Source: Raillietiella orientalis
Lineage: Eukaryota
Direction: 5' to 3'
NCBI GenBank assembly: GCA_036172245.1
Contig: JAYWIR010000035.1
Coordinates: 2,108,001-2,172,000 of the forward strand
DNA length: 64,000 bases
In this document: positions 4,228-63,651 of the stretch, piece after piece
Position numbering within the stretch: position 1 is the stretch's first letter
Layout of the letters: every line of letters starts with the position of its first letter
Made by a program: the position numbers and the translations under genes
Notes under the pieces: model-generated
What the model saw: only the letters and a program-made list of their open reading frames with translations
What the model was told of the DNA's origin: nothing
Database searches by the model: none

Positions 4228-5329
4228 ATGCCAGCTGCCTTGCTTGTCCAGTTAGTAGCGAGCTCTGTGAAAATAGCCACGCATGCAGGAAAAATTATTA
4301 AGCAAGTGCTTTCATCCGGGGATCTGAAGATCGTGGATAAGGTGAAGCGACGTTTGCTCGCACAATTTGAGTAATGTCTTTGGAATCCCGAAGAATACTT
4401 CAGAGCAAGGGCGTTGTGATCTGCAGACAGAGGCAGACCGTTTGTCACAGAATTGCATCATCTCGTCCCTGTATCGCCTTTTTCCAAAGTTGATCATCAT
4501 AGGGGAGGAAGAGCTTGGAGAAGGAGAAATTGTGGATGTTGATCTTTCTGATCCCTGCTTGTCGTCGGTTCTTGCAGCCCCTTGTCCTCAGGAGTTCAAA
4601 GATGTGGCTGAAGAGCAAGTAAATGCACACACCACCACTGCATGCTCGAATTTGTAAAATGTTGTCATCCAGATAGTGGTGTGGGTGGACCCTTTAGATG
4701 GCACATTGGATTTCACCAAAGGCAAGTCTTCTGTTTGCTTTGTGCACATCGGATGTGTTCAGGGCACTTGGATAATGCCACGGTGCTCATTGGGATGGCT
4801 GTGGGTGGCAAGCCGGTGGCTGGTGTGATCCATCAGCCATGGAATAAGGAACGAACAATTTGGGGATTGGTGGGCTTTGGCGTGGGCAACCTTGTCCCGA
4901 AGCCAGCTGTTCCTGATCAGCTCATTGTTGCCACATCACGCTCCCATTCCAATCAGAACAACCAACTTTGCATGCAGGCTTTACGTCCTGACCAAGTGCT
5001 TTATGTTGGTGGATCAGGATATAAAGTAAGTGCAATTGTCAGCCACTGTTGGATGACCGTGTGGGTCCTAGGTTCTTCTTTTGCTGGAAGGTGTTGTTCA
5101 TGCATATGTGTTTGCCAGCCCAGGCTGTAAAAAATGGGACACCTGTGCCTCAGAAGCTATTCTAACTGCAGCTGGAGGAGTGTTGACCTCTTTGCATGGG
5201 AAACAGTATTCCTATTCCCAAGATTCTCCACTTGTCAATTCCGGTGGAATCTTGGCAACCATGGACATTGGCTTGCACTCGCAGCTTCTAGCTAGAATCC
5301 CAGACACGGTTCAGGAGGCTCTCCAGTGA
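4228..5329 (+). CDS. BPNT1: 3'(2'),5'-bisphosphate nucleotidase 1 (inositol-monophosphatase superfamily), copy 1, 5 exons, ~300 aa
   Basis: Manual splice model: 4228-4351 (or -4341), 4404 (or 4406)-4618, 4673-4721, 4763-5025, 5072-5329. Protein MPAALLVQLVASSVKIATHAGKIIKQVLSSGDLKIVDK..DLQTEADR..IIIGEE..VVWVDPLDGT..LDNATVLIG..GVIHQP..TSRSH..VGGSGYK..AYVFASPGCKKWDTCASEAIL matches animal BPNT1 end to end. Metal-binding GEE, DPLDGT and WD motifs are intact. Intron 1 boundaries are ambiguous; intron 3 is GC-AG. Confidence 0.95.
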
Positions 5330-5557
5330 GATGTCTGTGCAGCAGCTGACAACTTGGAAATTCCTTTTTATTTGATGCCTGCAGAACCAGTTGACCTATA
5401 ACCCCGCTGCATGATGCAAGAGGTTTCCTCTTTTAATTGGTTCATGGGTGCTGTGGACCACCGGTGTGACTGTTTGCCCTGAATGTGTGCACAATGAGTT
5501 GCAGTCATGCCAAGAAAGCCTGTTTGTTCGCTTGGTTGCCTTCGGGCACTTTGTGTG

Positions 5558-6960
5558 ATTGTGAAAAGCACCAGCCAATTGGGTGGTGCATCACAACGAA
5601 GCAGAACCAATTAAGTGTTGGGAAGGTTCCGTTTCCGTTGTTCTGAAGAACGTTCGTCGTGCCAGAAGTTCGCCCACCCGCGTTTCGGCAGAGATGCCGT
5701 CTTTCCGAATAAAAATTGACCAAAGAGAAACGCGGTGTTCTTTACCCTAAGCAAGCTGCTTGCGCATTCCGATCGCGCCACTTGGACGCACACGACGTTT
5801 GTTTTTCCGCCGTCACCTGCATCCGGACGGAACGTGGACGCAGGTGGAACCAGGAAGCGGGAAAAGCCTAGTCCGCGAGTGTCCGATCGACGGCAAGCAG
5901 GCGAAGGATTCCTACTCTTCGGACGGTGGGCAGCGTCCAGCTTTTCCGCCGCCTGCCGTTAGCAGTGCCGGAGGGGGCAGCAGCGGGATCGACTGCCGCG
6001 AATGCTAGAGGACGAAGGCGTCCTGGTGCGTGGCTGTTCGCAGGATTGCAGCAACATGGCACGGGTTTGGCGAGGCAGCGGGTTGCATCGAATGCGCTGG
6101 AAGTCGCACGGGCCGCGTGCATGCGATCCGTCGGCTCACGCGGAAGAGTGCAGGCGCACGAGGGAACCCCAGGTCGGCCGCACTCGCCCCAAGCAAGCGC
6201 GACCGCTTGCTAGGCACGCGCCATCACGCTCGCTGGTGCGGTGCAGTCGGCTGTTCCGGCGCGTGCTGGCTCGCTTTCGGTCGGACTCGCTCGCATCTCG
6301 CCGGCCTTTCCTCACGGGCACGTCCGTGGCCGCAGACGTGCCGGCAGCACGCACGTCACTCCGCTTCCTCGTTGCGAAGGAGTTAGGCGAGGGTGCCCTT
6401 CTTGCGAGAGCCCGGAACGGGATGCGCGCTTTCGATTGTTGTCGGTGAGGAGGGCGAGGGAGGGGAGCGGCCGCCCGAGGGCTCGTGCGAAGCGCGGAGG
6501 CGGCGCGCTCGCAGCCCGGGCGGTTTCCCTCGGGAAAGGTGGTCGCGGCTCGCCAGCTGACCGGCGCCGCCGGCCGTGCCCGAGGCGCGCGACGACGGAC
6601 GGTCTCTCTGGAACGTGCGAGCGATCGGGTGGATGCGGTGCGCGCGCGCGTTCTTCCCTGCGGAGCGGCGTCCCGGGATCGCAGGGGGGGGGGGGGGAGC
6701 GAGGAGCACGGGAACGGCACGGTAAGGACTTTCCGGTGCTGCTGGCAGGCGAGCGGACTGAGGGAGCACGGCACGAGCCGGGCATGGGCCCGTTTGCGTC
6801 ATCGCGTCTTCCCGCGGAGGGGAATGTCAAATGAGGATGCAAACGAAGGCAGCTGTCCCGAGGAACTGCTGCTTTTTCCAGGAGTCCAAATGGTCTCGGT
6901 TTGCGCAGCGGCCCGCGTGCTCAAGGTGACCTGCCTGGAAATGAAACGGCGGCGGAGCGC
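5558..6960 (+). repeat. GC-rich ~1.4-kb dispersed repeat, copy 1 (possibly a highly decayed non-LTR retrotransposon segment)
   Basis: Also at 11948-13349 (-) and 44242-45645 (+). Contains EGVRRGCPS, resembling the RT motif GVRQGCPLS. Repeat status is certain; the LINE identity is weak. Confidence 0.8.
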
Positions 6961-7833
6961 CTCAGCTGTTAATCCCAGTGGTCGGCAAAGGTTGCTGGAT
7001 TTCTGGCGGTGCCCTAAGAACGCAAGCTGGTTCGTGCTGCTGCTGCGGGATTCCGTAGGTTTCGTGACATCATCGTGGACAGCCAGTAGCTCCCGTCGCA
7101 CCGGTGGGCGCTGGCTCATTCCCAAGGGATTTTCGACATCTCGGAGATGTCCAGGGTAGTTTCTCCACGCACGATTCGAGAGCGTCATGCAACGGGGAGC
7201 AGAGAGCGGAAGAAGGGCAAGCGAAGGAGCAGCTCGAGGCACGCGAAGCGAAATGCTGAGGGCATCTGCATTGGAAAGCGCGAGGCAGAATGCTGAAGGA
7301 TCGCTCTCTGTCGAGCGGACGAGGAACGCAACACCACTCGACGGCTTCGGAGCAGACGAACGATCGCAACAAACGGCAGCGCAGAGGGCCGCGAACACTT
7401 TGTCTCGCTGTGCGGCAACCTCCGAGCCGAGGGCTGGTAGGGCGGGGGCCGCATTGCGAGAAAGACTGTTGCTGCACCTATTCCCACCCTGAGCCTTTCT
7501 GTCTCTTTGTGGGCGCCAAAGACTCGTGCAATCGCCTCGCTCGCGCCGACGGCGACTCGGCAGCTCCGGCGGATCGAATGCTGCAGTTCGTCTTCGGCGT
7601 GGACTGACTGACTGCCTTCGGCCAGCCGAAGAGCGAAAGGACGCGGAAGAAGCGATGGCAGCCTGCCGTCGCCATCATCCGTCGCCAAGAGAACGATCGG
7701 TTGGTGCGGATCGGCGCCTGAGCGTGCGTGCTCTGTGAAAAGAACGAGCGGACGAGATGAATTCTTTATTGGAATGTCGTTGCACGAAACTGCGATGCTG
7801 GATCTCAGGCTGTTGCCTTACTTCCGCGGGAAT

Positions 7834-7983
7834 CTACTGAGTTACGAACAGGTGGTTTTCTTCTGGCGCGAACCATAAGTCCAGGTGTGTCAAAACTGGT
7901 AGGGACACGGTCCATTGCTCATTGAAGTCGGTTTTCATGTCGCTGTCGAATGCCAGACCGCACAGCGTTCTTTCTTCATTGAG
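7834..7983 (-). pseudogene. Orphan inverted copy of exon 9 of pepsin-like gene A (with splice acceptor, 3' part of intron 8 and 3'UTR)
   Basis: Mirror of 10925-11074 inside the left palindrome arm; encodes LNEERTLCGLAF...HLFVTQ*. Confidence 0.85.
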
Positions 7984-8479
7984 CTGAAACGTTGTCCATC
8001 AGAGTGCTGAACGAGAGCAGCTCGGGCGCATGCGCATCTGCGTCCTCAAGGGAACAAACGGTTGTTGGGGGTTGGAGGCTGTGAAACAGCACTGCAGGAC
8101 AGTGAATTCACGAGCATGCTTTGTGATTTTCACCGGAAATCCAATTTTGGAAACTGCATCTAATTTGTGTACGTTTGCGTTTGCGATCGTCGGGCATAGT
8201 TCGAGACGTAAACGGGGCGAGAAGGCTGACACCGCAGTATACCGCTTCACGTGGTTTACCCCAGCAAGAGAAGATGATCGAGGCCATCAAAGTATTGGGA
8301 AACGGAAGCTTTGTCGGCCGTAATTATCAGATGATCTATGCCGATGAGATATTGCAAATGCAACGCCGTTTAAGACTGTTGCTTGCGAAGCTCGGCCGTG
8401 GTATAAGAAAAAACTTTCTTGCGTCAAACTGCGGTTTTCCAATGTTTGATTTTTCTCTGACGGAGAATCTTTAATTAAC

Positions 8480-8681
8480 CACAAAGTCAAAACAGCAAAT
8501 CGACCAAAGATTGAACTTGGAGAACTATGTATCCCATCCCTGAGTGCTCCTTATGGTTTGAATATTCCTGAATAATCAATTCGAATTGGAATGAGATTCC
8601 TGGTTCAGGTGTGCCAAAGTTCCCGATAAATAGCGTTTAAGAAGTCAGCAGCTTCACACAAACCCAGCAAACTCCCCCAGG
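8480..8681 (+). promoter_or_regulatory. Upstream region conserved between the pepsin-like paralogues, with TATA-like GATAAATAG (8625-8633)
   Basis: Alignable to 23815-24015 (minus), e.g. gtgtgcc.aagttcccgataaatagcg shared, about 50-60 nt upstream of each ATG. Confidence 0.55.
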
Positions 8682-11074
8682 ATGGCCGTCCAAGCTCTCT
8701 GCGTGTTGATGTGCCTGTGCACGTAAGTGAACCAGGTTTCCCCAAATTTCTCATCTTGACGAACTTGTTGATTGTCCAATCAGACTTTTGACCTCAGCTG
8801 CCACGCAGGGAAGTGTATCTGATGCTGTCTATGAAATCTCGTTAAAGATGGAAAAGGTAAGAGGTAGAGATCTTTACCAAAGTGCATCAGTATTCAACTG
8901 TGCATCCAGCATCAGCATTATGGAGTCATGGAAGTTGGCAGCTCTCATTCAAATTTTTTTACCACTGTGGATACCACGCACTCAGTTACATTGGTTCCCT
9001 CATTCAATTGTATCAGCAAATTCTGTGGCAAGTTCACTGGAATTGTCCTTTGAGGACATACGTTCTTGAATAATGTGTGAGGATTTCCTTTCCAGTGGGG
9101 AGACGCAGATATGCTCTTTGCGCTTCGAATACTTCTTATGACACCGAATATTATATGAAGCAACACATTTGTGGGGAACCTATCGAAGGATATGCCACTT
9201 ACGATTACGTGAAGGTAGTATCTGTAACATCCCACTCAATGCCGACACAAACGGGAATTTAAAAAAAAATCGATGAACAGATGTGGCAGCTACAATCAGA
9301 AGAGAATCCTGTAGAAGACAAAATCAATCTGCTTCTACTGCCTTTCAAAATAAATCCAGATTCTACCAGTCTCTTGCGCCACTCCAAGGTTGAAGCATCG
9401 CTTGGGTTTGACAGATACGCATTCCAACGGATAGCAACTCATCTAAACATTGAGCATATCTTCTCCGTGTCGTTCAACAGGTAAAATATGATCCATCAGG
9501 ATAAAACAGAAGAGAAAAAAACTTCCTAGCACCGAGAGAACAGCAAAAATACTTCTAGGAAAACAGCGCATTCCATCATCCACAAAGTGGATCGACCTTT
9601 CTCCTAACTACACACTGTACACATTCACCATGCACAGGTACTGCAGTTTTATGAACTCCCTTTAGAGAGAGTAGGCGAGCTCCATTCATCAACTTTGAAG
9701 AACCTCCCTAGAAAACCCCAGTCAGCGGACTGCAGTGTACCTGCATCCTCGTCCGCTGATGGCGGAACCATCCACCCGTCGAGAGGCAACTCTCAGCCCT
9801 CTCGCCACGCACGCAGAAGCGCGTTCGATCCACTTCTACCGCTTTCCCTGCACTCGTGAAAGACCCTTCTGAGCGACAATTCGCTCACTCCATTCCACCC
9901 GCTCAAGAACCCCTTTCAAGGAGGAAACACGCCTTTGTCTCTTTCCAGTGTGCTCATCGGCGGACAGTCAGTGGCAGAGAATGTTCAAGCAGTTGTCGAT
10001 TTGGCCAACCCAATTCTGAAAGTTAGCCGTCATTTCATCGACCAACTCTCCTGCCACACGGAAGCCATGAAAAACGAAATATTCAATGGACTGTTGACAG
10101 TGAGGTGAATGCTGGCCGAATCCCAAATCTCTTTGCGACCAGGGCTCCTGCGAATCGTTCTCCAAGCGACTGCCCGAGATAAAATACCAACTGGCTCATG
10201 ATATTTCTGTCACCTTGGATCCGGACGATTACCTCCTTCACGTAAGTAAACTCGTGCTCTTTTGATTGAAAAACTGTCCGCTGCTTCCACTGCTTCCCAG
10301 ATCTCTCCCTTTCCCTATTCCTTCCTTCCCCACGAGGGGCAAACCATCGCGCAAGCGATTGCCTCCTACGAACACGAGCCTTTGGGGTGATTTTGGGGAC
10401 GCTGATCGCCCTAAAAATCTCCCAAACAAAGCAAAAACTCCGACAACGTGCAAGTAGGAGCCCGTTCGAGCAACTGGATTTCCGTTTTACTGCACCGCTC
10501 AGGAGTTACAATCGCACTTCCATTACCAATCAGCATCTCAGCAAGCCATGTTCCGTTTCCTAGCACTCCGTTTTCCGAAGATAATTACGGCCGACAAAGC
10601 TTCCGTTTCCCAATACTTTGATGGCCTCGATCATCTTCTCTTGCTGGGGTAAACCACGTGAAGCGGTATACTGCGGTGTCAGCCTTCTCGCCCCGTTTAC
10701 GTCTCGAACTATGCCCGACGATCGCAAACGCAAACGTACACAAATTAGATGCAGTTTCCAAAATTGGATTTCCGGTGAAAATCACAAAGCATGCTCGTGA
10801 ATTCACTGTCCTGCAGTGCTGTTTCACAGCCTCCAACCCCCAACAACCGTTTGTTCCCTTGAGGACGCAGATGCGCATGCGCCCGAGCTGCTCTCGTTCA
10901 GCACTCTGATGGACAACGTTTCAGCTCAATGAAGAAAGAACGCTGTGCGGTCTGGCATTCGACAGCGACATGAAAACCGACTTCAATGAGCAATGGACCG
11001 TGTCCCTACCAGTTTTGACACACCTGGACTTATGGTTCGCGCCAGAAGAAAACCACCTGTTCGTAACTCAGTAG
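8682..11074 (+). CDS. Secreted pepsin-family (A1) aspartic protease homologue A, predicted catalytically impaired, 9 exons, 352 aa
   Basis: Exons 8682-8722, 8784-8856, 8910-9027, 9096-9214, 9281-9480, 9530-9637, 9949-10099, 10143-10241, 10925-11074 join in phase with no stops (1059 nt). Hydrophobic N-terminus MAVQALCVLMCLCTLLTSAA. Pepsin landmarks in order: HQHYGVMEVGS..VDTTHS..VPSFNCISKFC, RRRY..SNT..ICGEPIEG..DYV, EASLG, IFSVSFN, KILLG, VLIGG..AVVDLANPIL, GSC..LPEIKYQL..LDPDDYL, LCGLAF..QWTVSLPVL. AATAAA at 11138. Confidence 0.85.
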
Positions 11075-14000
11075 ATTCCCGCGGAAGTAAGGCAACAGCC
11101 TGAGATCCAGCATCGCAGTTTCGTGCAACGACATTCCAATAAAGAATTCATCTCGTCCGCTCGTTCTTTTCACAGAGCACGCACGCTCAGGCGCCGATCC
11201 GCACCAACCGATCGTTCTCTTGGCGACGGATGATGGCGACGGCAGGCTGCCATCGCTTCTTCCGCGTCCTTTCGCTCTTCGGCTGGCCGAAGGCAGTCAG
11301 TCAGTCCACGCCGAAGACGAACTGCAGCATTCGATCCGCCGGAGCTGCCGAGTCGCCGTCGGCGCGAGCGAGGCGATTGCACGAGTCTTTGGCGCCCACA
11401 AAGAGACAGAAAGGCTCAGGGTGGGAATAGGTGCAGCAACAGTCTTTCTCGCAATGCGGCCCCCGCCCTACCAGCCCTCGGCTCGGAGGTTGCCGCACAG
11501 CGAGACAAAGTGTTCGCGGCCCTCTGCGCTGCCGTTTGTTGCGATCGTTCGTCTGCTCCGAAGCCGTCGAGTGGTGTTGCGTTCCTCGTCCGCTCGACAG
11601 AGAGCGATCCTTCAGCATTCTGCCTCGCGCTTTCCAATGCAGATGCCCTCAGCATTTCGCTTCGCGTGCCTCGAGCTGCTCCTTCGCTTGCCCTTCTTCC
11701 GCTCTCTGCTCCCCGTTGCATGACGCTCTCGAATCGTGCGTGGAGAAACTACCCTGGACATCTCCGAGATGTCGAAAATCCCTTGGGAATGAGCCAGCGC
11801 CCACCGGTGCGACGGGAGCTACTGGCTGTCCACGATGATGTCACGAAACCTACGGAATCCCGCAGCAGCAGCACGAACCAGCTTGCGTTCTTAGGGCACC
11901 GCCAGAAATCCAGCAACCTTTGCCGACCACTGGGATTAACAGCTGAGGCGCTCCGCCGCCGTTTCATTTCCAGGCAGGTCACCTTGAGCACGCGGGCCGC
12001 TGCGCAAACCGAGACCATTTGGACTCCTGGAAAAAGCAGCAGTTCCTCGGGACAGCTGCCTTCGTTTGCATCCTCATTTGACATTCCCCTCCGCGGGAAG
12101 ACGCGATGACGCAAACGGGCCCATGCCCGGCTCGTGCCGTGCTCCCTCAGTCCGCTCGCCTGCCAGCAGCACCGGAAAGTCCTTACCGTGCCGTTCCCGT
12201 GCTCCTCGCTCCCCCCCCCCCCCTGCGATCCCGGGACGCCGCTCCGCAGGGAAGAACGCGCGCGCGCACCGCATCCACCCGATCGCTCGCACGTTCCAGA
12301 GAGACCGTCCGTCGTCGCGCGCCTCGGGCACGGCCGGCGGCGCCGGTCAGCTGGCGAGCCGCGACCACCTTTCCCGAGGGAAACCGCCCGGGCTGCGAGC
12401 GCGCCGCCTCCGCGCTTCGCACGAGCCCTCGGGCGGCCGCTCCCCTCCCTCGCCCTCCTCACCGACAACAATCGAAAGCGCGCATCCCGTTCCGGGCTCT
12501 CGCAAGAAGGGCACCCTCGCCTAACTCCTTCGCAACGAGGAAGCGGAGTGACGTGCGTGCTGCCGGCACGTCTGCGGCCACGGACGTGCCCGTGAGGAAA
12601 GGCCGGCGAGATGCGAGCGAGTCCGACCGAAAGCGAGCCAGCACGCGCCGGAACAGCCGACTGCACCGCACCAGCGAGCGTGATGGCGCGTGCCTAGCAA
12701 GCGGTCGCGCTTGCTTGGGGCGAGTGCGGCCGACCTGGGGTTCCCTCGTGCGCCTGCACTCTTCCGCGTGAGCCGACGGATCGCATGCACGCGGCCCGTG
12801 CGACTTCCAGCGCATTCGATGCAACCCGCTGCCTCGCCAAACCCGTGCCATGTTGCTGCAATCCTGCGAACAGCCACGCACCAGGACGCCTTCGTCCTCT
12901 AGCATTCGCGGCAGTCGATCCCGCTGCTGCCCCCTCCGGCACTGCTAACGGCAGGCGGCGGAAAAGCTGGACGCTGCCCACCGTCCGAAGAGTAGGAATC
13001 CTTCGCCTGCTTGCCGTCGATCGGACACTCGCGGACTAGGCTTTTCCCGCTTCCTGGTTCCACCTGCGTCCACGTTCCGTCCGGATGCAGGTGACGGCGG
13101 AAAAACAAACGTCGTGTGCGTCCAAGTGGCGCGATCGGAATGCGCAAGCAGCTTGCTTAGGGTAAAGAACACCGCGTTTCTCTTTGGTCAATTTTTATTC
13201 GGAAAGACGGCATCTCTGCCGAAACGCGGGTGGGCGAACTTCTGGCACGACGAACGTTCTTCAGAACAACGGAAACGGAACCTTCCCAACACTTAATTGG
13301 TTCTGCTTCGTTGTGATGCACCACCCAATTGGCTGGTGCTTTTCACAATCACACAAAGTGCCCGAAGGCAACCAAGCGAACAAACAGGCTTTCTTGGCAT
13401 GACTGCAACTCATTGTGCACACATTCAGGGCAAACAGTCACACCGGTGGTCCACAGCACCCATGAACCAATTAAAAGAGGAAACCTCTTGCATCATGCAG
13501 CGGGGTTATAGGTCAACTGGTTCTGCAGGCATCAAATAAAAAGGAATTTCCAAGTTGTCAGCTGCTGCACAGACATCTCACTGGAGAGCCTCCTGAACCG
13601 TGTCTGGGATTCTAGCTAGAAGCTGCGAGTGCAAGCCAATGTCCATGGTTGCCAAGATTCCACCGGAATTGACAAGTGGAGAATCTTGGGAATAGGAATA
13701 CTGTTTCCCATGCAAAGAGGTCAACACTCCTCCAGCTGCAGTTAGAATAGCTTCTGAGGCACAGGTGTCCCATTTTTTACAGCCTGGGCTGGCAAACACA
13801 TATGCATGAACAACACCTTCCAGCAAAAGAAGAACCTAGGACCCACACGGTCATCCAACAGTGGCTGACAATTGCACTTACTTTATATCCTGATCCACCA
13901 ACATAAAGCACTTGGTCAGGACGTAAAGCCTGCATGCAAAGTTGGTTGTTCTGATTGGAATGGGAGCGTGATGTGGCAACAATGAGCTGATCAGAAACAG

Positions 14001-15035
14001 CTGGCTTCGGGACAAGGTTGCCCACGCCAAAGCCCACCAATCCCCAAATTGTTCGTTCCTTATTCCATGGCTGATGGATCACACCAGCCACCGGCTTGCC
14101 ACCCACAGCCATCCCAATGAGCACCGTGGCATTATCCAAGTGCCCTGAACACATCCGATGTGCACAAAGCAAACAGAAGACTTGCCTTTGGTGAAATCCA
14201 ATGTGCCATCTAAAGGGTCCACCCACACCACTATCTGGATGACAACATTTTACAAATTCGAGCATGCAGTGGTGGTGTGTGCATTTACTTGCTCTTCAGC
14301 CACATCTTTGAACTCCTGAGGACAAGGGGCTGCAAGAACCGACGACAAGCAGGGATCAGAAAGATCAACATCCACAATTTCTCCTTCTCCAAGCTCTTCC
14401 TCCCCTATGATGATCAACTTTGGAAAAAGGCGATACAGGGACGAGATGATGCAATTCTGTGACAAACGGTCTGCCTCTGTCTGCAGATCACAACGCCCTT
14501 GCTCTGAAGTATTCTTCGGGATTCCAAAGACATTACTCAAATTGTGCGAGCAAACGTCGCTTCACCTTATCCACGATCTTCAGATCCCCGGATGAAAGCA
14601 CTTGCTTAATAATTTTTCCTGCATGCGTGGCTATTTTCACAGAGCTCGCTACTAACTGGACAAGCAAGGCAGCTGGCATTTCCCAAATATTGGAAGTTCA
14701 CTTTCTGATAGGAAACGGAACCCGGAAAAATAAATCATTTACTTGGAGATTCTCGGAGAAATGTGCTTTGCTGCTGCTCCATACCTGAACACGGTGCACC
14801 AACCGACACCTGCGGGGAGCTTCCTAGGGATTGCAAGCTACTTGAAAACAGGGGGCCGCAGAGGACACGTAGTACAGATTTGCTTCCGTTTACAGCAGGC
14901 TCGATGGTACGAAATACCGACGGAATTCTACCCAACCAACCTCACTTTGCATGCTAATGCAACGCACATCCACGTGTACGGCACAGAGCTTTCGACTGCA
15001 TTCGCGAAATCTGCCATTCTGGACGTTCGACTGTG
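10580..15035 (-). repeat. Right arm (4456 bp) of large inverted repeat
   Basis: See left arm. The ORF track shows mirrored identical ORFs throughout. Confidence 0.97.
13578..14679 (-). CDS. BPNT1: BPNT1 copy 2 (inverted duplicate)
   Basis: Mirror image of 4228-5329 (coordinate sum 18907). One difference seen: codon cct (4912) vs tct (13995), KPAVPDQ vs KPAVSDQ. Confidence 0.93.
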
Positions 15036-15201
15036 CTACGAGCAGCGCGCGGCGCACTTTCACGCACACCATCCATGCGACTGAAACCGAGGCTGCCAGG
15101 CAATCATTGACGGCTGCAATTCTCGTTCCAACTGCACACGTGCGATCCATCGGAAAAACTGGGGCCCACCCACAAAGTAGCCGGTTTGGTGTCCTTCCAG
15201 C

Positions 15202-16000
15202 TTTTTTTTTTTTTTTTTTTTTTTAAGAGTTTTCTTTTTTTTGGTTCGCTAAGTACCTCAGAGCCGGTCGCGTGCCTCGCGGCGCGTGTGGCTCTTTTTA
15301 AACATTAACACACTGTTTTGTTTCCACGCCTGTCCGCGGCAACCCGCAGGGGGGGGCGTGTAATTCTTCAGTGTAATATTTTTCAGGATAGGGGGCACCC
15401 CGGGATGGGGTCCGCCCTATTGAATCCAGGAAGGGCTCGGAGTCCGTTCCTCTCACGCTTGGGGAGGGATCCCCCCCGGACGGGGGGGATCTCACCTCCC
15501 ACCCTGGTTGTCTCCGAAGGGGAACCCCGAAGGGAATTCTCCTTCCTCATTCTCTCCGGAGGGACACACCCCCCCTTGCGGGGTGGTGGTCCTCTCCATT
15601 TCAACTTCTCCGAAGGGAACCCGGAAAGGATCCGCTTCTAGGAATTTCTTCTCCGGAGGGAACCCGCAAGGGAACCGCTCCTTTATTCACTCCTCTGAAG
15701 ACAACCCCCACAGGGGTGCTTCCGAAACTCAGAAGGGGCGCTGCAGCTTCCCGCAGGGAATCGCTCTCGCTTAGCTTCTTTCCTTTGTACACACTCTGTG
15801 AAGAGGCGACGACTCGGAGGGACCCCCCAACAAAGGGGGGTCAGCTCCTTTGAACAACTGGAGAGGTGCCCGTGAGGGCTCCTGCTCCATCTTGAAACCG
15901 GAGGCGGTCCCCCCGGTGACGGGGGTCCACTCTCCTTTGCACACAGGAGGGGGAACTCCCCACTCCTTTATTCCTGGGAGGACCCGAAGGTCGACTCCCA
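15202..16000 (-). mobile_element. Possible retroposed segment with poly(A) tail and degenerate ~42-bp GC-rich repeats
   Basis: T23 at 15202-15224; repeated ctccg(a/g)agg..aacc units at 15512-15700. No recognisable protein. Confidence 0.3.
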
Positions 16001-17041
16001 TTGTTCCGGCCTTCACCGGGGGGCTCCGGCTTTATCCACCGCCGGGGCCACGCCCGAATGTCTCGGCCAACCAGCGCCGTTGCAGGAGAAACTCGGAACC
16101 CAAACGACGCAATGGCATCAAGTTATCCGGCCAAGTATTCGAACCCGCGACGCATGGTGCCACGCGCGGAAGCCTTAACCACAAAGCCTCCGACGCGGGT
16201 TTGGTGTCCTCCCTCGGATGGCTGGGTACGAGCATTCCCCAAAGCAAGCGCGTCCGTGCAAACACGACGAAAAGTCGACGCACTGTTCGTCGTTTGACGT
16301 AACCCGATTTGCAGTCACACAAGCTTCCCGTGTCCCCTCCACGTGTTCTCTTTTCTTTTTTTTTTGCTGTTTTGTCTTTATCAAAACAAGGTTTTCGCCT
16401 AATACGAAACCGGACCAAGTCATGTGGGAGGAGAGGAAGGGAAAAGAACCAAACGCAAGCGCTGAGGTTCGAAGTGCGCTTCACGGACGCCAAAGGAACC
16501 ATTCACAAAAGAGCTGCAAGACAAAGACGTCCCCTCGCCTCCAGAAAGAACAAAGAGCAACATCAAAGAACAAAGTACGAGAGGCGGCAAAGCCTTGCAG
16601 TCTTCACGATGCACAATTCCTTCGGCTCGCACGCGAAACCTTGATCCAGCTTCCCGATCTTCATCCAGCCCTCGTTGACTCCTGCTTACGAGGATTCGTG
16701 CCGTTGCCAAGGGTGGAAGAAACGCATGGGTCGCCGACAACGAGAGCGACTTAACCAGCTCCAATGCAATGTCGCTCCTGCACCTGGCATTGCATCATTC
16801 AAGGCATGCTGAAGCGGGTATCAGTAGCAAGGAAATAAGGGTGCGGAAAACGACCGAGACTAGAGAGAGAACGAAAAAAAAAAAAGAAACTTCCCGGCCC
16901 GCGTTGTCCACTTTCCACATCCGGCTGTGGCGTTTCGAGATGCTTCGGAAGAAGTTTGCTGGCTACGTGCACGCGGAAAGGTCCTCAGCTTCCTCTGCTG
17001 GGTCGGGGTGGGTGGTGATCACACGGCAAGAAAGTTTGTTC

Positions 17042-17165
17042 GGACGTCTGCCTGTAGACGGTGAAAAGTTGAATCCTTGGTGAAACTTCGGTTTGTTTGC
17101 TGCGGTGCACGGGGAGATATCATCGAGCTGCAAGGAAGTCTGCCATCATTTGTCCAGTTAGCGAA
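17042..17165 (+). repeat. Diverged inverted copy of 3762-3885
   Basis: ggtgcacggggagatatcatcgagctgcaaggaagt.tgccatcatttgtccagttagcgaa is shared with the minus strand of 3762-3830, with looser similarity to 3885. Confidence 0.8.
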
Positions 17166-17699
17166 TTGTTGCATATTCTGAATTCTTGCTTACGGTGAGC
17201 TGTTTTTATCTGAATGGAGGATAGGGAAGGGAAATGGGAATTAGTTGGAACGACGCAAGAACAAGAAATGAGGATTTTGTAATTGCGATGTTATTTGAAG
17301 CTGGAAGGGTCTTGTTACGGCGAGTATGCCTCTTCTTTGTGGAGTGCTTCTTTGTGGGTAGCTATTTCTGGATATTTCATCTGGAAATTGTTTCCGCATC
17401 CGCATCCACTTCGTACATGTGTTTCTTGAAAGACCATTCTTAGATCTTGATCCCTCTCATTTGAGAGTTTTGCAAGGTGACGCCGTGCGTGATCGATGTG
17501 TTTGATTTCCGCAAGTAGTTGGCCTTGATAGTGGACAGGAACTGACTTTTTGAGTAGAAGACATTCAGTAAGGTGTTTCGTTCTCCTTCGCATGCCGATC
17601 TTTCCGTGATATAAGCAGCGTCTTTACGATGTCCCTGACCGCCTCCCGTCTCCCAGTCGTATCCGCTTGCTCTTGGTTCAAGTCTTCGCTGCATTGTGG

Positions 17700-18250
17700 T
17701 TCGCGTGCAGTTTGCTCTTACAGTCTTTTCCTTCCGTGACAGTATGGTCTTCCGGTTTCTCTTCCGGCTCGTTTCTCTCATTCTCGGCTTCTCGGAGTTC
17801 GAGGTTGACGCGTCTGCTCCCTGCCCCGTTTCTTCTTCTGGCCACACGAATGCCCGAGGCCTGTTGTTGGATTTCTGCAGGCTTACCGACCCTCCCTGCG
17901 GTGGAAGCCAGTCCTCGCGTTTCCGTCATTCCCGCTCGGCGTGTCCACACCTCCCTGCACAAGCAGCACGAGCCCCAGAGGCTCGGCAAACCGAATGTCC
18001 TTGTTGCCCGCATCGGTAGCGCGTGCCTCTTGGGGCACGAGGCCGCCCGGTGGCCAAGCGTCATGCGATCCCGACGAAAGTCGGGGTGCTCCCGGTCGGG
18101 CACTTGCACGAGCGGCGACTCTTCGTCAGCGACGGCAAGTCCGGGAATTCCTGAAGCCCAGCTTTCGCCTTGGAGTGCCTCTCCCGGAAAGATGCTGGCG
18201 GGGGGCAGGGGACGTTGCCGCCACTTTGCGCAGTCCGCCCTACTGTGCAA
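17700..18250 (-). mobile_element. Degenerate LINE ORF1 (gag-like zinc knuckle) remnant
   Basis: LGHRAASCP followed, after a frameshift, by YRCGQQGHSVC, i.e. broken CX2CX4HX4C-like knuckles. Confidence 0.35.
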
Positions 18251-18811
18251 AGCACTTCGAGGCGGTCTTCAGGAACGTGCCGAGGAGTGCAGATGTGAGG
18301 CAGTTAAGGCTGCCTATTGATCCGATTCGATAAGATGCCGTCTGCATCGGAAAAGGCACCCATTATGATGGTGCCTGATTTCGACGCGGGCTTCAGCCAG
18401 AACGTTGCAAGCTGCGTGAATGGAGATGTCCGACGGCTTGTCCGTTCACGTACAAAAGAAAAGATGGACTTCGCTTTTGCAAAATCCGTAATCCACTTGA
18501 AAGTGGTAGAACGAATTATAGATGTTTCCCAGCCCACTGTTGCGAATGGAAACCGTGTTGGAAACCGTTGGCTTGAGCGGAAGGTGGAGTTCCAACAACA
18601 TTCACTGGTTTTGCTGAGGTCTCCATGCCTGCCGTGGAATGCTGCTGACGCCGTTACTGTCATTCTCATCCTCTTTACCTGGTAGGGAAATATTTCTGCA
18701 GAAGACAAGGGCTTCATGCGCATGAAAACTGGAGACTTGGAGCACAAAACCAAGAGTCCCTTCTGGGAAAGCACTGAAGACGAAGAAAAGTACACACGGA
18801 AATATGAATGG

Positions 18812-19562
18812 AACGAACAGGAGAAACAGTATTGAAGGAAAGTGGTGGGTGGCTTCGACTCTGCAGGAACCTCCAGGAGCGCCTGCAGCTCCTTGTTCGC
18901 CCACATCGATGCGGCTGGCCAGATGCGGTGCCTCCGAGGGGTGCCGGCTCGGTGCAACAGCTGGAAAGAGGTGAAGCTAAAAACACACAAAAAAAGGATG
19001 TTTCGGTGTTTCCCTGCAAGCAGGAATCTTTCCTGCTCGTTCCCCGATGCCGAAATCTTGTCCTCGGAGTCGTCTGCACCAAGGTGACTCTCCGTTAGCA
19101 CAGAGAACTCTTTCTCGACCGATGTTTGCCTGGCTGGATGCGGAACCACAATCCGGAAACAAGAAATCGCTCGCCCTCCTGCATACTGCGGGAGAAGACG
19201 CTCGACGGACAGAAACGCAAGCAATAGGGATGCGACGGTACGCTGCACTGCGACACGTTTAACAGGTTGGTGCGCCGTGCTTCTTCCTCAAGGGCTCCAA
19301 CAGAGTCGAGAGCTTGCTTGGTGGATGCTTCCCGTTCAGTGGTACAGCCAATACCGTACCAAGTACTGTGTGCGAGGAGCGTAAGTTCCGAACCGGCGTT
19401 GTCGCTGAGCATTCAGGGATCGGCTTTGCACCGCTACTCCCTTCGTCACGCTTTCCGTGCGCCCCGTTCCACGAGCATGCCTGTCGGAAGAGGAGGAATG
19501 GATCTCACGGAGGGCGATGAGGAACTGGTCGCAAAGAACGCCATTGGCAAACAGATGTGACC
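18812..19562 (+). repeat. Left arm (751 bp) of second inverted repeat
   Basis: Reverse complement of 24136-24886 (coordinate sum 43698); two substitutions seen by eye. Confidence 0.95.
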
Positions 19563-21700
19563 TGCTCTTGAAAGACGGAGGAGGAGATCCAAGAAGCTGC
19601 GGTGAATGTGCGCGCAAAACAAAGAGGAAAGGATCAACTGTGCATCCAGACAGCGATCGACACAAGAAAAGACAATGGGCACATTCGGAAGCACTGCGAA
19701 ACAGGAATAAGCCGATAAGTATTGGACGCGGACACTTCAGCAGGTCAGAAGTTCTGTCGAAACAACGATACTGGTCGTAGCGATGGCATTGTCCTCCTTC
19801 ATAAGATTTGTGTTGAGTGTTTGCTCGAACAACATGTGGTTGCCGGAAGCAGCAGGTAGGATATATGGCACTGCTGGTGCGTGTCGCACTGGGTGCATCT
19901 GGAAGGTCGCTGCTCGTACATCAGCTCACTCATGGCATCCCTGGACTATAGGACCTCGAGGACACTTTCGTCAAGGGTGTTCCGCGTCTAGTCCGAGTTG
20001 AGGCGGACACTTCATGCGGCGTTTCATATTCCAACATTCCTCTCTTCCTGAGGGAATACGGGCAGGGTATATAAGGGCAACAGGAGAGGAGGGGGAATGC
20101 ATTTCGGGTGGAAACTTCTCAAGAGTGTTGAGCACGCTCGAGAATGCCGTTTCTTCCTGCATCGCTCACATTCTCCCTCAAAAGTATCTCTTTGCATGCA
20201 AATCGATACCTATCGAAGCCGCTGCAGCCGACAACCGCTGCCGAAAGTCCGCAAGCCGATGCCTGGCGCGCGCATCGGATGCAAACGCATTCTCTCGCGG
20301 GGGCGTTTTGCAGCAACACGGGAAAGCCGTTTCCACTGTCTTTTCCTCTACTTCACCCTCTCGTTCTGTAGACGGGAGAGTGAGGGGAGAAAACAAGGAA
20401 AAGGGGGAAAAAAGGGGGAGGAGGAATAGGAAGGGAAGGCAAGCAGATTGATTCTTCAGCTCCGAATTCGTGGAGAAGGGAATCAAGAAAGGTTGCTCAC
20501 TGCAACCTTTTTTGGAACGGAACCTCCGCTAAGTGCGGCACGCTAGCCAACAGCAGGAACCTTCTTTCCCACCATCTTGCCGATGTAATTGGAATTTTCC
20601 AGCGGTGCATGGAGTTCTCGCATCAAGGGGAAATCCCTGACTAGGGCTGCATCGTCCTGTTCCTTCTTGCATATCGAACATCACCGGTGGTTTTCCGACT
20701 GTAGCTTCATGCATGCTGCTACTCGGCTGCGTCTACTGCCAGCAGCACTGCCCTTGCCAGAGGCACCCACTCTGCATGGATCCGATATGCAGGGACTTGT
20801 TCGAAGAGTCCTCGACGCACATTGTAAATCGCAGCGTGCGGAACTCTGCTTTCATCACCAACAGGCATCGACGAGTGAAGGATGGTACACAGGATAGATT
20901 AGAAGAGCTGGTGGTCTCAAGCCAGTCAGTCTCAGGAGGCGACTTCAGACGGATCGGCCACGAAAGTCGAGTCGTCACACTAGATGAGGCCTGACCAAGT
21001 GCAAGAAGCGCGGAAACTCAAGGAAGTAGGAAGCAGTCCGTCCTTTTCCCACAGATGAGTACCGGTATTTATGAGAGAGCGCTCCTGTCAGGATTCCTGA
21101 AAGTTAGGGAACTCGAAGAGTGACGAGGTGCTCAGAGAACAGGAGATCCCTTTCCCGATGGCAGAAAGCATGGAGTATAGGATGGCCGAGACACTTACCG
21201 GAGACACGTTCTCGGTCAGTGGCCAGTTTGAAGAACCACCAGCGAGTTTCGGATGGGTGACCGATTGATACCAGTCACATCTACGAAACATAAAGAAGTA
21301 GCTTGGCGGAGCGATTGAGGTGTGCTCACGCTCAATTCCGGGGCGATGAGTACTGTTCTGAAGACACGAGAGAAGCACATTGGTGGTCGCCATCTCGTTG
21401 CGAAGCTTCGCTTGCGCCAACGACAACTCAGCGGCCCTGGTGGACCAAATGCTGCAGTTAGTCTTCGGAGTGGACTGGCTGACTATCTAGAGCCAGCCGA
21501 AAAACTAAAGGACACGGAAGAAGCGATGATAGCCTGCGGTCATCATCCGTCTCCAAGAGAACGAGCGGTTGGTGTGGGTTGGCGCCTGAGAGGTGCGCCC
21601 TTTGAAAAGAATGAGTGGATGAGATGAATTCTTTATTAGAATGCCGTTGCACACTAAGATGCTGGTTCCGCAGCTTGTTGCCTCACATCTCTGGGACTAT

Positions 21701-23814
21701 CTATAGACTTATGAACAGCTTGTCTTCCTCCGATTGGACCCATAAGTCCAGGTAGGTCAAAACTGGTAGGGACACGGTCCATTGCTCTTCGAAGTCGCTT
21801 TTCATGCTGCTCTCGAACGCCAGACCGCACAGAGTTCTTTCTTCATTGAGCTGAAACGTTGCCCATCAGATTGTTGAACGAGAGCAGCTCGGGAGCATGC
21901 GCATCTGCGTCGCCGTTCTCGGATGATCGGGATCGGTAATGGGAGTACGATTGGAGTTGGTGCAGGAGAATGCAAATCCAGTTGCTCGAATGGACTCCTG
22001 CTTGGACATTCTCGGAGTTTTCCTGGAGGTTTTCAGGGTGATCCCTAAACCCCCCCCTGGGAGGTTTTTAGGGTGATCAGTGTCCCCAAAATCACCCCAA
22101 AGGCTCGCGTTCGTAGGAGGCAATCGCTTGCGCGATGGTTTGCCCCTCGTGGGGAAGGAAGGAATAGGGAAAAGGAGAGATCTGGGAAGCAGTGGAAGCA
22201 GCGGACAGTTTTTCAATCAAAAGAGCACGAGTTTACTTACGTGAAGGAGGTAATTTTTCGGATCCAAGGTTACAGCAATATCATCCGTCAGTTGGTATTT
22301 TATCTCGGGCAGTCGTTCGGAGAACGATTCGCAGGAGCCCTGGTCGCAAAGAGATTTGGGATTCGGCCAGCATTCGCCTCACCGTCAACAGTCCACCATT
22401 ATCTTTGCTGTATGGTACATCCATGATTTGCGCAAGTTCCTGGAGAAATTCAGGGGCAACTTTCAGAATTGGGTTGCCCAAATCAACCACTACTTCGACA
22501 TTCTCTGCCACTGGAAGTCCGCCGATGAGCACACTGGAAAGAGACAAAGGCGTGTTTCCTCCTTGAAAGGGGTTCTTGAGCGGGTGGAATGGAGTGAGCG
22601 AATTGTCGCTCAGAAGGGTCTTTCACGAGTGCAGGGAAAGCGGTAGAAGTGGATCGAACGCGCTTCTGCGTGCGTGGCGAGAGGGCTGAGAGTTGCCTCT
22701 CGACGGGTGGATGGTTCCGCCATCAGCGGACGAGGATGCAGGTACACTGCAGTCCGCAGGCGGAGGTTCGAGGATGAGGAACCTGGGCATTCGTGGCTTC
22801 ATCTCTCCTTCACGTCTCCTCTGAAACGAGAATCCACTAAGCCTAGGTACCTGCGAATCTGGAATTTGTAGAGGTCGGTTTCTGAAATGGGAGACAGTTG
22901 CACTTCTGCTGATCCCGGGAAAACTTTTTGTTTTCCTAATTGAATCAGTATCGTTTTGGTGTTCCTGACAAGGAGTCATTTTGCTTATCACGAGCCGTCC
23001 TTCTACCTGTCTGCCGTAAAACTGAAGCTCGGGTCGATTCCGAGCTGTTGTGCTATGTTTCTGAGTGCTCTCCTGTCGAACCCGAGGGATGCCTGAACCT
23101 TGCTGCTGTACAAGAGACTGCCTCGTTTCGGTTCCGCGACAAAAGGAACGATCGAAGCTTTCACTGTGGGCTCCGGGATGTCATCGGACCGAACGCTGAA
23201 CATCTGTTTGGGAATGGTTTGGAAATCCGCGTTACGCCGATCCGCAACCGTTGGTTTTTCGAGCTAATACTTGCACGTCCTCTTCGAAAACCTTCCCGTG
23301 CACGGGTTCGCCGCATACGAACAGGGCAATCTCGGAATCGGTTGCTCGGCTGGAATTCGAAGCGCATGAGGAATATCTGCGTCTGTACACTGGAAGGGAG
23401 AAAAGCATCGTCTGCGTCTCACGCGGGGACTGAGCGTGCTTCGGTTCCAGTGGATAGTCAACTTGCCACAGTAATCGCTGACACAATCCGTCGAAGGCAT
23501 CAAGCTGTATGAATGCGTTGTATCCAGAGATGCCAAAAACCAGAAGCGAGGACTTCCGACGTAGAGGTTACCGAAGTATTGATGCTGCGCGCACAACGAG
23601 ATCAGTTTTTTTACTCTCTAGTGAAATGTGACTGCCACTTGCCTTTTCGCCCTTCAACCAAATATCATACTTAGCTTGCGAGACGTCCTGCATGTCAGCC
23701 AGAGTCAGGAAGCTGTTTGGACAATCAGCAAATTTGTTAACATGAGAAGGTTCGGGAAACAGGGCCCACTTACGCGCACAGGCACGCCAACACGCAGAGA
23801 GCTTGAACGGCCAT
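21701..23814 (-). CDS. Secreted pepsin-family (A1) homologue B, paralogue of A, 9 exons, 352 aa
   Basis: Exons 23814-23774, 23712-23643, 23584-23467, 23389-23271, 23203-23007, 22964-22851, 22533-22383, 22339-22241, 21850-21701, all in phase with the same intron positions and phases as A. HQYFGNLYVGSP..LDTTHS..MPSTDCVSDYC and VVVDLGNPIL. AATAAA (minus strand) at 21632-21637. Confidence 0.85.
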
Positions 23815-24135
23815 CCTGCGGGAGTTTGCACTCGGGTTTGTGTGAAGCTGTTGTTGACTTCCCAACCGCTATTTATCGGGAACTTCGGCACACTTGAATA
23901 GGGAAATCCAATTCCAGTTTTCATTGATTATTCAGAAATGTTGAAACCATGGGGAGCTCTCTGAGATGGGACACAGAGTTGAATCCCGGTTCGATCTGCT
24001 CTTTTGACTTCGCGTAGCCACTCGGAGATTCCCCGGTGGTGAGAAGTCAACCGTCGGGATAGCGCAGCATCCCAGGAGACATAGACTTACTGATTCCGCG
24101 ACACCGATTTTCGCAAATAGTAGCAAATTCGCGTG

Positions 24136-24886
24136 GGTCACATCTGTTTGCCTATGGCGTTCTTTGCGACCAGTTCCTCATCGCCCTCCGTGAGATCCAT
24201 TCCTCCTCTTCCGACAGGCATGCTCGTGGAACGGGGCGCACGGAAAGCGTGACGAAGGGAGTAGCGGTGCAAAGCCGATCCCTGAATGCTCAGCGACAAC
24301 GCCGGTTCGGAACTTACGCTCCTCGCACACAGTACTTGGTACGGTATTGGCTGTACCACTGAACGGGAAGCATCCACCAAGCAAGCTCTCGACTCTGTTG
24401 GAGCCCTTGAGGAAGAAGCACGGCGCACCAACCTGTTAAACGTGTCGCAGTGCAGCGTACCGTCGCATCCCTATTGCTTGCGTTTCTGTCCGTCGAGCGT
24501 CTTCTCCCGCAGTATGCAGGAGGGCGAGCGATTTCTTGTTTCCGGATTGTGGTTCCGCATCCAGCCAGGCAAACATCGGTCGAGAAAGAGTTCTCTGTGC
24601 TAACGGAGAGTCACCTTGGTGCAGACGACTCCGAGGACAAGATTTCGGCATCGGGGAACGAGCAGGAAAGATTCCTGCTTGCAGGGAAACACCGAAACAT
24701 CCTTTTTTTGTGTGTTTTTAGCTTCACCTCTTTCCAGTTGTTGCACCGAGCCGGCACCCCTCGGAGGCACCGCATCTGGCCAGCCGCATCGATGTGGGCG
24801 AACAAGGAGCTGCAGGCGCTCCTGGAGGTTCCTGCAGAGTCGAAGCCACCCACCACTTTCCTTCAATACTGTTTCTCCTGTTCGTT
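24136..24886 (-). repeat. Right arm (751 bp) of second inverted repeat
   Basis: Mirror of 18812-19562; inner edge lies 322 bp upstream of the ATG of pepsin-like gene B. Confidence 0.95.
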
Positions 24887-63556: not shown

Positions 63557-63651
63557 GCGCTCTAGGGCGGACGTGTTTTCTCGGTGCTCCTCGTGCCAGG
63601 AAGTCTCCCCCAGTGCAAGCGTCGTGTGGTTCGGTGGTCGATCAGGCAGCG

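Follow-up and report, generated by a model that had tools for sequence, protein, structure and literature searches.

Peptidases of family A1, the pepsin family, build a "fireman's grip" from the Thr-Gly of both D-T/S-G motifs and use Tyr75 to close the flap over the substrate; the catalytic water is crowded when position 34 bears a side chain. Pepsin-fold pseudo-enzymes have arisen repeatedly (cockroach allergens, ruminant PAGs, and plant inhibitors), and their ligand is mostly unknown. In the group of cockroach Bla g 2, the aspartates are kept and the neighboring residues of the triads are changed (DST/DTS). The plant TAXI-type xylanase inhibitors, EDGP, and basic 7S globulin are secreted, non-proteolytic, prosegment-free binding proteins with an A1 fold, which form a TAXI_N/TAXI_C branch with many more disulfides. 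According to excerpts of the literature, Bla g 2 has a bilobal aspartic-protease fold, is inactive through substitutions in its catalytic site, and contains five disulfides (PMC3137622). Per a 2 and Lma-p54 add to the insect examples, with a function that is either unknown or presumed to be binding (PMC9541408); the proteins of this group are secreted. PAGs are described in similar excerpts as secreted relatives of pepsin that evolve fast and form multigene families, certain members being regarded as inactive (PMC5561160, PMC13389413). Here, we describe two genes from a 64,000-nt stretch of Raillietiella orientalis DNA (contig JAYWIR010000035.1, positions 2,108,001 to 2,172,000 of the forward strand; hereafter the window), which is eukaryotic DNA without N. 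Homology and exon architecture both place gene A (8682-11074, + strand) and gene B (23814-21701, - strand) in family A1, and we regard it as very probable that the two are real A1-derived genes. The best explanation, which we favor with somewhat better than even confidence, is that they are convergently oriented paralogues, once pepsin-type genes, which have come to encode secreted, non-catalytic, ligand-binding proteins of the pepsin fold.

Both genes were rebuilt by script from stop-to-stop open reading frames (ORFs) with pepsin-like pieces, guided by the alignment of the A and B DNA. In each of them, nine exons join into 1059 nt, which correspond to 352 codons and a stop with zero internal stops. 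An earlier interpretation of this DNA, made by a model from the letters and their ORFs (the sequence-only reading), had proposed two nine-exon genes of 352 amino acids (aa) each, and re-splicing bears out its coordinates and frames. Every one of the 32 splice sites fits GT/GC-AG, and the sites of A correspond in position to those of B; 13 of the 16 introns are GT-AG, and the other three (intron 3 of A, introns 2 and 3 of B) are GC-AG with the donor gcaagt. The statement that the genes splice cleanly is thus correct as to open frames and intact splice sites, but it has to be qualified for the three introns that need GC-AG. The introns are 42-77 nt long, except for intron 6 (311 nt in A and 317 nt in B) and intron 8 (683 and 390 nt). 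An in-frame stop lies 51 nt 5' of the ATG of gene A, and a TATA-like box and the spacing of an AATAAA (exactly 66 nt past the stop codon) are common to both genes. Other arrangements were tried and rejected. A GT donor for intron 3, situated 3 nt upstream, has a poorer donor consensus, loses the canonical second Cys, and breaks the 118-nt exon, and a short exon 9 placed directly after exon 8 of gene A (10242 onward) would end the protein in a tail of just 29 residues that lacks the pepsin landmarks of the C-terminus. A tblastn search of the window with the spliced products returned genes A and B plus one orphan copy of exon 9, and nothing else. Tracks that are based on ORFs overlook genes of this type entirely.

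The layout of the two genes is that of a pepsin-type gene. The exons measure 41, 73/70, 118, 119, 200/197, 108/114, 151, 99, and 150 nt (A/B where the two differ), as compared with 53-59, 151-166, 118, 119, 194-200, 117-123, 136-148, 99, and 147-156 nt in the four mammalian PAG genes (pepsin-type) listed in Table 3 of PMC5561160. Exons 3, 4, 5, 8, and 9 of A and B match the PAG lengths of that table. The excerpted text of the same paper assigns the catalytic aspartates of PAG genes to exons 3 and 7 (PMC5561160), and those of A and B are likewise encoded in exons 3 and 7. The PAG-like exon lengths provide independent support for where the exons begin and end. This holds also for the GC donor of intron 3, the only one to yield a 118-nt exon and keep the canonical Cys. 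They also show that A and B derive from a canonical nine-exon A1 gene. Since the silkworm cathepsin D gene has nine exons as well (PMC1629011, in excerpt), this architecture marks an animal-type gene but no particular taxon.

The start of the genes departs from this layout. Together, exons 1 and 2 comprise 111-114 nt vs. 204-219 nt in the four PAG genes (PMC5561160, excerpted), i.e., they are about 90-108 nt shorter, and this shortening indicates the route by which the prosegment was lost. The first conserved block follows the hydrophobic N-terminus after only ~18 residues, in place of a prosegment of ~45 residues. The missing prosegment of the sequence-only reading is therefore substantiated both by alignment and by exon arithmetic against the PAG lengths of Table 3 (PMC5561160). 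The hydrophobic N-terminus, read by eye, suggests that the products of A and B may be secreted.

Homology to the pepsin family was assessed with a profile hidden Markov model (HMM) of 113 reference proteins of 300-450 residues, drawn from 121 (a cathepsin-D-like gene and 120 homologues, all 120 of which carry PF00026). Against this HMM, the spliced products score 51.8 bits (A) and 47.9 bits (B) in a match that is collinear over both lobes (profile positions 57-333 of 373, residues 36-313), compared with a maximum of 10.5 bits among shuffled or reversed controls (n = 2002). Exons 4-9 by themselves score 28.7 bits (A) and 22.0 bits (B). When exons 1-3 were kept and the remainder was shuffled (500 each), the mean was 12.9/12.2 bits and the maximum 20.2/18.8 bits. 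Because exons 4-9 score above these controls, the homology spans both lobes and extends beyond the exon-3 motif. In addition, hhalign aligns the A+B pair to the reference alignment with 99.0% probability (E 3e-17) over 319 columns. The pepsin-family homology of the spliced products is thus supported over both lobes, and they would be expected to adopt a bilobal pepsin fold. Single exons were also searched against the PDB: for exon 3 of B, chymosin was matched at E 0.005 and A1 peptidases made up 20 of the 22 matches, and for exon 3 of A all nine matches (9/9) were A1 peptidases. The best exon-level PDB matches were to chymosin, cathepsin E, gastricsin, and plasmepsins. The cathepsin-D-like gene that served as seed of the reference set (L001 2237-3412, + strand) is itself an intronless, canonical A1 peptidase gene of 391 aa (P0001); its contig is filed as a giant-virus genome bin in a viral collection, and the gene may be viral or the contig that of a mis-binned protist.

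Residues of the active site were called from a profile alignment against the 113 references, with pepsin numbering. Both catalytic aspartates (equivalents of Asp32 and Asp215) are kept in A and B, and only their neighbors are altered. In lobe 1, DTGS has become DTTH (Gly34 to Thr and Ser35 to His, each invariant in 113/113 references), and the conserved N-L-W that follows the motif reads V/Y-T/S-L, with Trp39 replaced by Leu. In lobe 2, DTGTS reads DLANP in A and DLGNP in B. Thr216 is thereby changed to Leu, and of Gly217, Thr218, and Ser219, which are present in 113/113 references, all are replaced except Gly217 in B. The flap Tyr75-Gly76-x-Gly78, whose residues are conserved in 113/113, 111/113, and 113/113 references, respectively, reads Ile-Cys-Gly-Glu in A and Val-Cys-Gly-Glu in B. 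Overall, 55 columns of the aligned range are near-invariant (at least 95% conserved), and A keeps 17 and B 21 of them. The D-T/S-G-T/S signature of A1 peptidases is absent from both lobes of A and B, as is their flap signature Tyr75-Gly76-x-Gly78 from both proteins. All of the motifs given in the sequence-only reading (DTTH, DLA in A, DLG in B, ALCAS..HICGE, SSCAS..FVCGE, and WTVS) are present in the re-spliced products, but two of its interpretations need correction. It described the catalytic triads as altered, which is true of the neighbors, and overlooked that the aspartates survive in both lobes. It also had the flap YG read as CG; the loss of Tyr75 and the new Cys are real, but Tyr75 corresponds to Ile/Val and the Cys lies at Gly76, one residue off. 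With Thr34, Leu216, and no Tyr75, the site would be expected to be inactive, given the A1 enzymology outlined above, and we consider it likely that the products of A and B are non-catalytic.

Of the canonical Cys (the 45-50 loop and the 250-283 pair), those at profile columns 93, 96, and 295 are present in A and B alike and that at column 329 in B, and in the MAFFT alignment A and B place a Cys at all four canonical positions, so the two canonical Cys pairs that had been reported are in place. A and B also share two further Cys, of which one precedes the flap and the other lies at the flap tip; in exon 4 of gene A, the former is situated 17 residues upstream. Each of the 6 Cys in the mature part of B has a counterpart in A, where a seventh, unpaired Cys is added. 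The new pair may form a flap disulfide. Toward the C-terminus, MAFFT --add aligned EQWTVSLPV to the reference PLWILGDVF, with the preceding Cys on an invariant Cys, and this placement requires no gap, either back to that Cys or onward to the C-terminus. With HMMER, the local alignment ends at residue 313, and hhalign puts another Trp at WILG. A change of the second psi-loop from ILGD to TVSL is thus probable; the earlier identification of WILG with WTVS is likely on account of MAFFT --add and spacing, but uncertain in view of the hhalign placement.

A comparison of A with B, on which as two sequences all tests of divergence rest, points to selection. The two proteins agree in 189 of the 354 columns of their alignment (46% differing). 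For exons 2-6 (204 codons, Nei-Gojobori script), dS is 1.41 (saturated) and dN is 0.57, with a dN/dS of 0.40, and introns 2-5 are barely alignable. Judged by these rates, exons 2-6 are an old duplication under moderate purifying selection. That two 352-codon frames and 32 splice sites have stayed intact at saturated dS argues for selection and against pseudogenes. The proposal that the genes were kept intact by selection is hence supported by the open frames, the intact splice sites, and the dN/dS of exons 2-6.

Other parts of the genes are much more alike. Identity between A and B amounts to 156/191 in the 5' flank (promoter and 5' untranslated region), 37/41 in exon 1, and 48/61 in intron 1, and over 9714-10440 gene A has almost the same sequence as gene B, introns included, which suggests gene conversion. 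Within this stretch, exons 7 and 8 differ at 57/250 positions vs. 18/477 in the introns (Fisher p 1e-14), a ratio of about six-fold; for exon 8 alone (10/99 mismatches), the difference from the introns has a p of 0.017. Moreover, 224 nt of intron 6 (A 9725-9948, B 22757-22534) are identical, and the next exon differs at 47/151 positions. Conserved introns with variable exons are a pattern of some fast-evolving secreted-protein families. The divergence is pronounced in a 23-residue patch past the lobe-2 loop (4/23 identical), as compared with 20/25 in the loop before it, and dN/dS reaches 1.0 for exon 7 by itself, as compared with 0.8 for exons 7-9 together. The flanks may have been converted while coding patches retained, or were selected for, difference. 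These data would suggest that the two copies have been kept functionally distinct.

Both genes are set in palindromes (Table 1). The loop of palindrome P1 is 2251 nt long and contains exons 1-8 of gene A, and exon 9 lies inside the right arm. As this arm starts in intron 8, exon 9 and its poly(A) signal are present twice, each copy facing the loop, and an inversion of the P1 loop could again give a complete gene A. The loop of palindrome P2 is 4573 nt long and contains the whole of gene B.

Table 1. Features of genes A and B and of the surrounding palindromes, in positions of the window.
Feature	Position	Strand	Remarks
TATA-like element, gene A	8626..8631	+	within GATAAATAG, 56 nt before ATG; conserved in gene B
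Gene A exon 1	8682..8722	+	start codon in AGGATGG; most of hydrophobic signal-like segment
Gene A exon 2	8784..8856	+	73 nt; signal end and N-terminal strand of mature-type domain; no prosegment
Gene A exon 3	8910..9027	+	118 nt; lobe-1 psi loop, DTTH for DTGS; first canonical Cys pair; GC donor
Gene A exon 4	9096..9214	+	119 nt; flap region, with Ile for Tyr75, Cys for Gly76, and Glu for Gly78
Gene A exon 5	9281..9480	+	200 nt, canonical length
Gene A exon 6	9530..9637	+	108 nt
Gene A exon 7	9949..10099	+	151 nt; lobe-2 psi loop, DLAN for DTGT, then 23-residue variable patch
Gene A exon 8	10143..10241	+	99 nt, canonical; first Cys of second canonical pair
Gene A exon 9	10925..11074	+	150 nt with stop; second Cys of second pair; WTVS at probable place of WILG
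AATAAA polyadenylation signal, gene A	11138..11143	+	66 nt past stop codon
TATA-like element, gene B	23871..23876	-	62 nt before start codon
Gene B exon 1	23774..23814	-	41 nt
Gene B exon 2	23643..23712	-	70 nt; GC donor
Gene B exon 3	23467..23584	-	118 nt; DTTH; GC donor
Gene B exon 4	23271..23389	-	119 nt; flap region, same two new Cys as gene A
Gene B exon 5	23007..23203	-	197 nt
Gene B exon 6	22851..22964	-	114 nt
Gene B exon 7	22383..22533	-	151 nt; DLGN
Gene B exon 8	22241..22339	-	99 nt
Gene B exon 9	21701..21850	-	150 nt with stop
AATAAA, gene B	21632..21637	-	66 nt past stop codon
Palindrome P1 left arm	3872..8328	.	arm pair: 4457 nt with one mismatch and one indel (99.96% identical)
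Palindrome P1 right arm	10580..15035	.	starts inside gene A intron 8
Palindrome P2 left arm	18812..19562	.	arm pair: 2 mismatches in 751 nt (99.7% identical)
Palindrome P2 right arm	24136..24886	.	partner of 18812..19562
Orphan copy of exon 9 of gene A and its AATAAA, in mirror orientation	7834..7983	-	P1 left arm

The arms and their surroundings hold further sequences. A compact multi-exon gene of the Inositol_P family (13578-14561, - strand, with a mirror at 4346-5329, + strand; best exon in Pfam E 3.8e-13) is present twice owing to its position in the P1 arms. By motif reading, it looks like an animal BPNT1-type 3'(2'),5'-bisphosphate nucleotidase; a search of the ESM Atlas with the last exon of this phosphatase gene gave a family match only. 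A GC-rich segment of ~1.4 kb with long ORFs in several frames occurs three times at 98.7% identity, at 5535-6959 and 11949-13372 in the P1 arms and at 44219-45643, 31 kb off; the tested ORFs of the arm copy had no match in Pfam. Farther away, an exon of another hidden gene for a secreted protein, of the CAP/cysteine-rich secretory protein type, lies at 35477-35794 (- strand; Pfam CAP E 7.9e-05), with hookworm ASP-1 (1.3e-10), GLIPR1, and insect venom allergens as its best PDB matches, and the remnant of a non-LTR (LINE) retrotransposon lies at 61699-63641 (- strand), with RVT_1 and zf-RVT matches on adjacent ORFs. Scans of the window against Rfam and for tRNAs were both negative. Together with the nine-exon architecture of A and B, the Inositol_P-family gene and the CAP exon suggest an animal source.

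Relatives of A and B were sought with exon-level queries of 39-82 residues, in collections where the genome seems to be unannotated, and a blank is therefore weak evidence of absence. Neither the exon-7 ORF (longer proteins only) nor an exon-3 alignment (5 candidates scored) found a relative among 5.8 billion clusters. An exon-5 profile had 0 matches at E up to 0.001 in 1.84 billion representatives, and exon 5 of A retrieved from the ESM Atlas only noise, in the form of bacterial families without relation to it (best score 0.80, recognition 2099). Among metagenome contigs, an exon-9 alignment gave 162 pattern stretches, of which 0 were confirmed, and an exact 35-mer common to A and B hit nothing. 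A lineage-specific family, as assumed in the sequence-only reading, may be what these negative exon-level searches reflect.

In the explanation that we favor, the ancestor of A and B would have been an ordinary animal nine-exon pepsin-type (A1) gene that lost its prosegment when exons 1 and 2 were shortened, such that a signal-like N-terminus would now be followed, ~18 residues on, by a mature-type bilobal domain. With the residues that position the Asp pair and the substrate replaced, no pepsin-type hydrolysis would be expected. The product would instead be a secreted, disulfide-stabilized pepsin-fold protein that binds a ligand, in which the two canonical Cys pairs are kept and joined by a new conserved pair involving the flap. 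The pair would be evolving fast: the N-terminal lobe would have diverged anciently under moderate purifying selection, and the 3' half would have been homogenized by gene conversion with the exons, most of all the 23-residue patch, kept different. Whether A and B act as secreted binding proteins is, on the sequence, an evenly balanced matter. A wider version, which we consider doubtful, would make them members of a rapidly diversifying secreted pepsin-fold recognition family, with partners in, e.g., host, prey, mate, or microbe, and with real palindromes that drive conversion or inversion. The former active-site cleft, stapled by a flap disulfide, would then be a fixed scaffold, and the hypervariable patch past the lobe-2 loop would carry specificity; palindrome-driven conversion would even out the introns and the signal-peptide exon as selection keeps coding patches different.

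Several observations weigh against our explanation. The retained Asp pair leaves room for residual or altered catalysis. It could be that A and B are working aspartic proteases with an unorthodox site, in which the Asp pair activates water with unusual specificity or an unusual pH profile: the equivalents of Asp32 and Asp215 are kept in both paralogues despite saturated synonymous sites, the surrounding loops (DTTHS, VVDL-NPILKV) rank with the better conserved stretches of the A-B alignment, and gene B keeps Gly217. However, residues that are invariant in 113/113 references are replaced (Gly34 by Thr, Ser35 by His, Tyr75, Gly78, Thr218, and Ser219), Thr216 has become Leu, and there is no prosegment to hold a secreted protease latent, which makes this quite unlikely. 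The A-B identity of exons 2-6, moreover, shows no significant concentration in the cleft loops (27/53 vs. 58/147, p 0.19), so no conserved binding cleft is claimed. As to the homology, only exon 3 is recognizably A1 when the genes are taken exon by exon. With Pfam Asp, which was run on single exons, the match anticipated by the sequence-only reading appears in exon 3 of B (E 0.15, 11.9 bits), below the cut-off of 19.9; no other of the 26 ORFs or 14 exact exons tested matched this family, and further weak hits were unrelated and sub-cut-off. The PDB search returned no match for exons 5, 7, 8, and 9 of A and only three non-A1 chance matches for exon 4 of B, and the C-terminal 39 residues fall outside the HMMER alignment.

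It is also unusual to see introns as short as 42-49 nt together with three GC donors, and the splice junctions and expression of A and B are proposed from sequence logic. The two genes might be unexpressed or decaying relics, whose frames have stayed open by chance and through repeated gene conversion, and such relics would agree with the exon-level searches that yielded no relative, with the repeat-rich, palindromic surroundings, and with the dN/dS of 0.8 over exons 7-9 and near 1 in exon 7, values that would also be expected under relaxed constraint. Yet 352 codons, the splice sites, a TATA-like box, and a poly(A) signal have been kept at a dS of ~1.4 (exons 2-6), dN/dS is 0.40 where conversion has not reached, and all 6 Cys of the mature part of B recur in A, so we regard decay as unlikely. 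The palindromes themselves could stem from the assembly, as chimeric long reads or haplotype mis-joins that altered gene number or order, and arm identities of 99.96% (4457 nt) and 99.7% (751 nt) are typical of artefactual fold-backs. On the other hand, the arms are not perfectly identical, the loops of 2.25 and 4.57 kb are unlike those of zero-spacer fold-back chimeras, and A and B lie in unique loops and differ by 46% at the protein level, which makes them distinct sequences regardless of the arms. Only the joining of exons 1-8 of A to one copy of exon 9 depends on the assembly. We consider it very unlikely that the gene arrangement is an artefact; the palindromes could be real inverted duplications held identical by conversion or products of the assembly. 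Our preference remains with secreted, non-catalytic pepsin-fold proteins.

Against the systems described at the outset, genes A and B resemble PAG-1 type genes in their nine exons, in exon lengths of 118, 119, ~200, 99, and ~150 nt, and in the position of the aspartates in exons 3 and 7 (PMC5561160, excerpted). They differ from them, as far as the tabulated and excerpted data of that paper go, in that exon 2 is full length in PAG genes (151-166 nt) but 70-73 nt in A and B, that the beaver PAG-L precursor has 391 aa and the A and B precursors 352 aa, and that PAG introns measure 85-1937 nt whereas those of A and B are mostly 42-77 nt (PMC5561160). The window shows no link to a placental mammal. 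With pepsin, chymosin, cathepsins D and E, and plasmepsins, they share homology over both lobes and two canonical Cys pairs, but unlike canonical A1 peptidases they lack D-T/S-G motifs, Tyr75-Gly76 in the flap, and a prosegment. Unlike the plant TAXI branch, A and B carry the animal nine-exon pepsin-type architecture. Like Bla g 2, Per a 2, and Lma-p54, as those are portrayed in the excerpts cited above, they are A1-type proteins with catalytic-site substitutions and extra Cys, here known from genes alone. In contrast to the Bla g 2 group, A and B read DTT and DLA/DLG, and the flap Tyr has given way to Ile/Val beside a Cys; no closer kinship with Bla g 2 is claimed than general A1 homology. 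As in non-peptidase A1 homologues, A1 homology goes together with lost catalytic residues, intact frames, and a dN/dS of 0.40 (exons 2-6). A and B are thus a very divergent new case of a known kind, that of non-catalytic A1 homologues, and constitute no new category. They are an extreme case, in that the nine-exon layout is kept, the prosegment is cut, and nearly all invariants of the site except the aspartates are replaced, and if expressed, they would offer a compact model for the turning of a protease scaffold into a binding protein. What sets them apart from the known cases, in addition, is the divergence of exons faster than introns and the palindromic setting.

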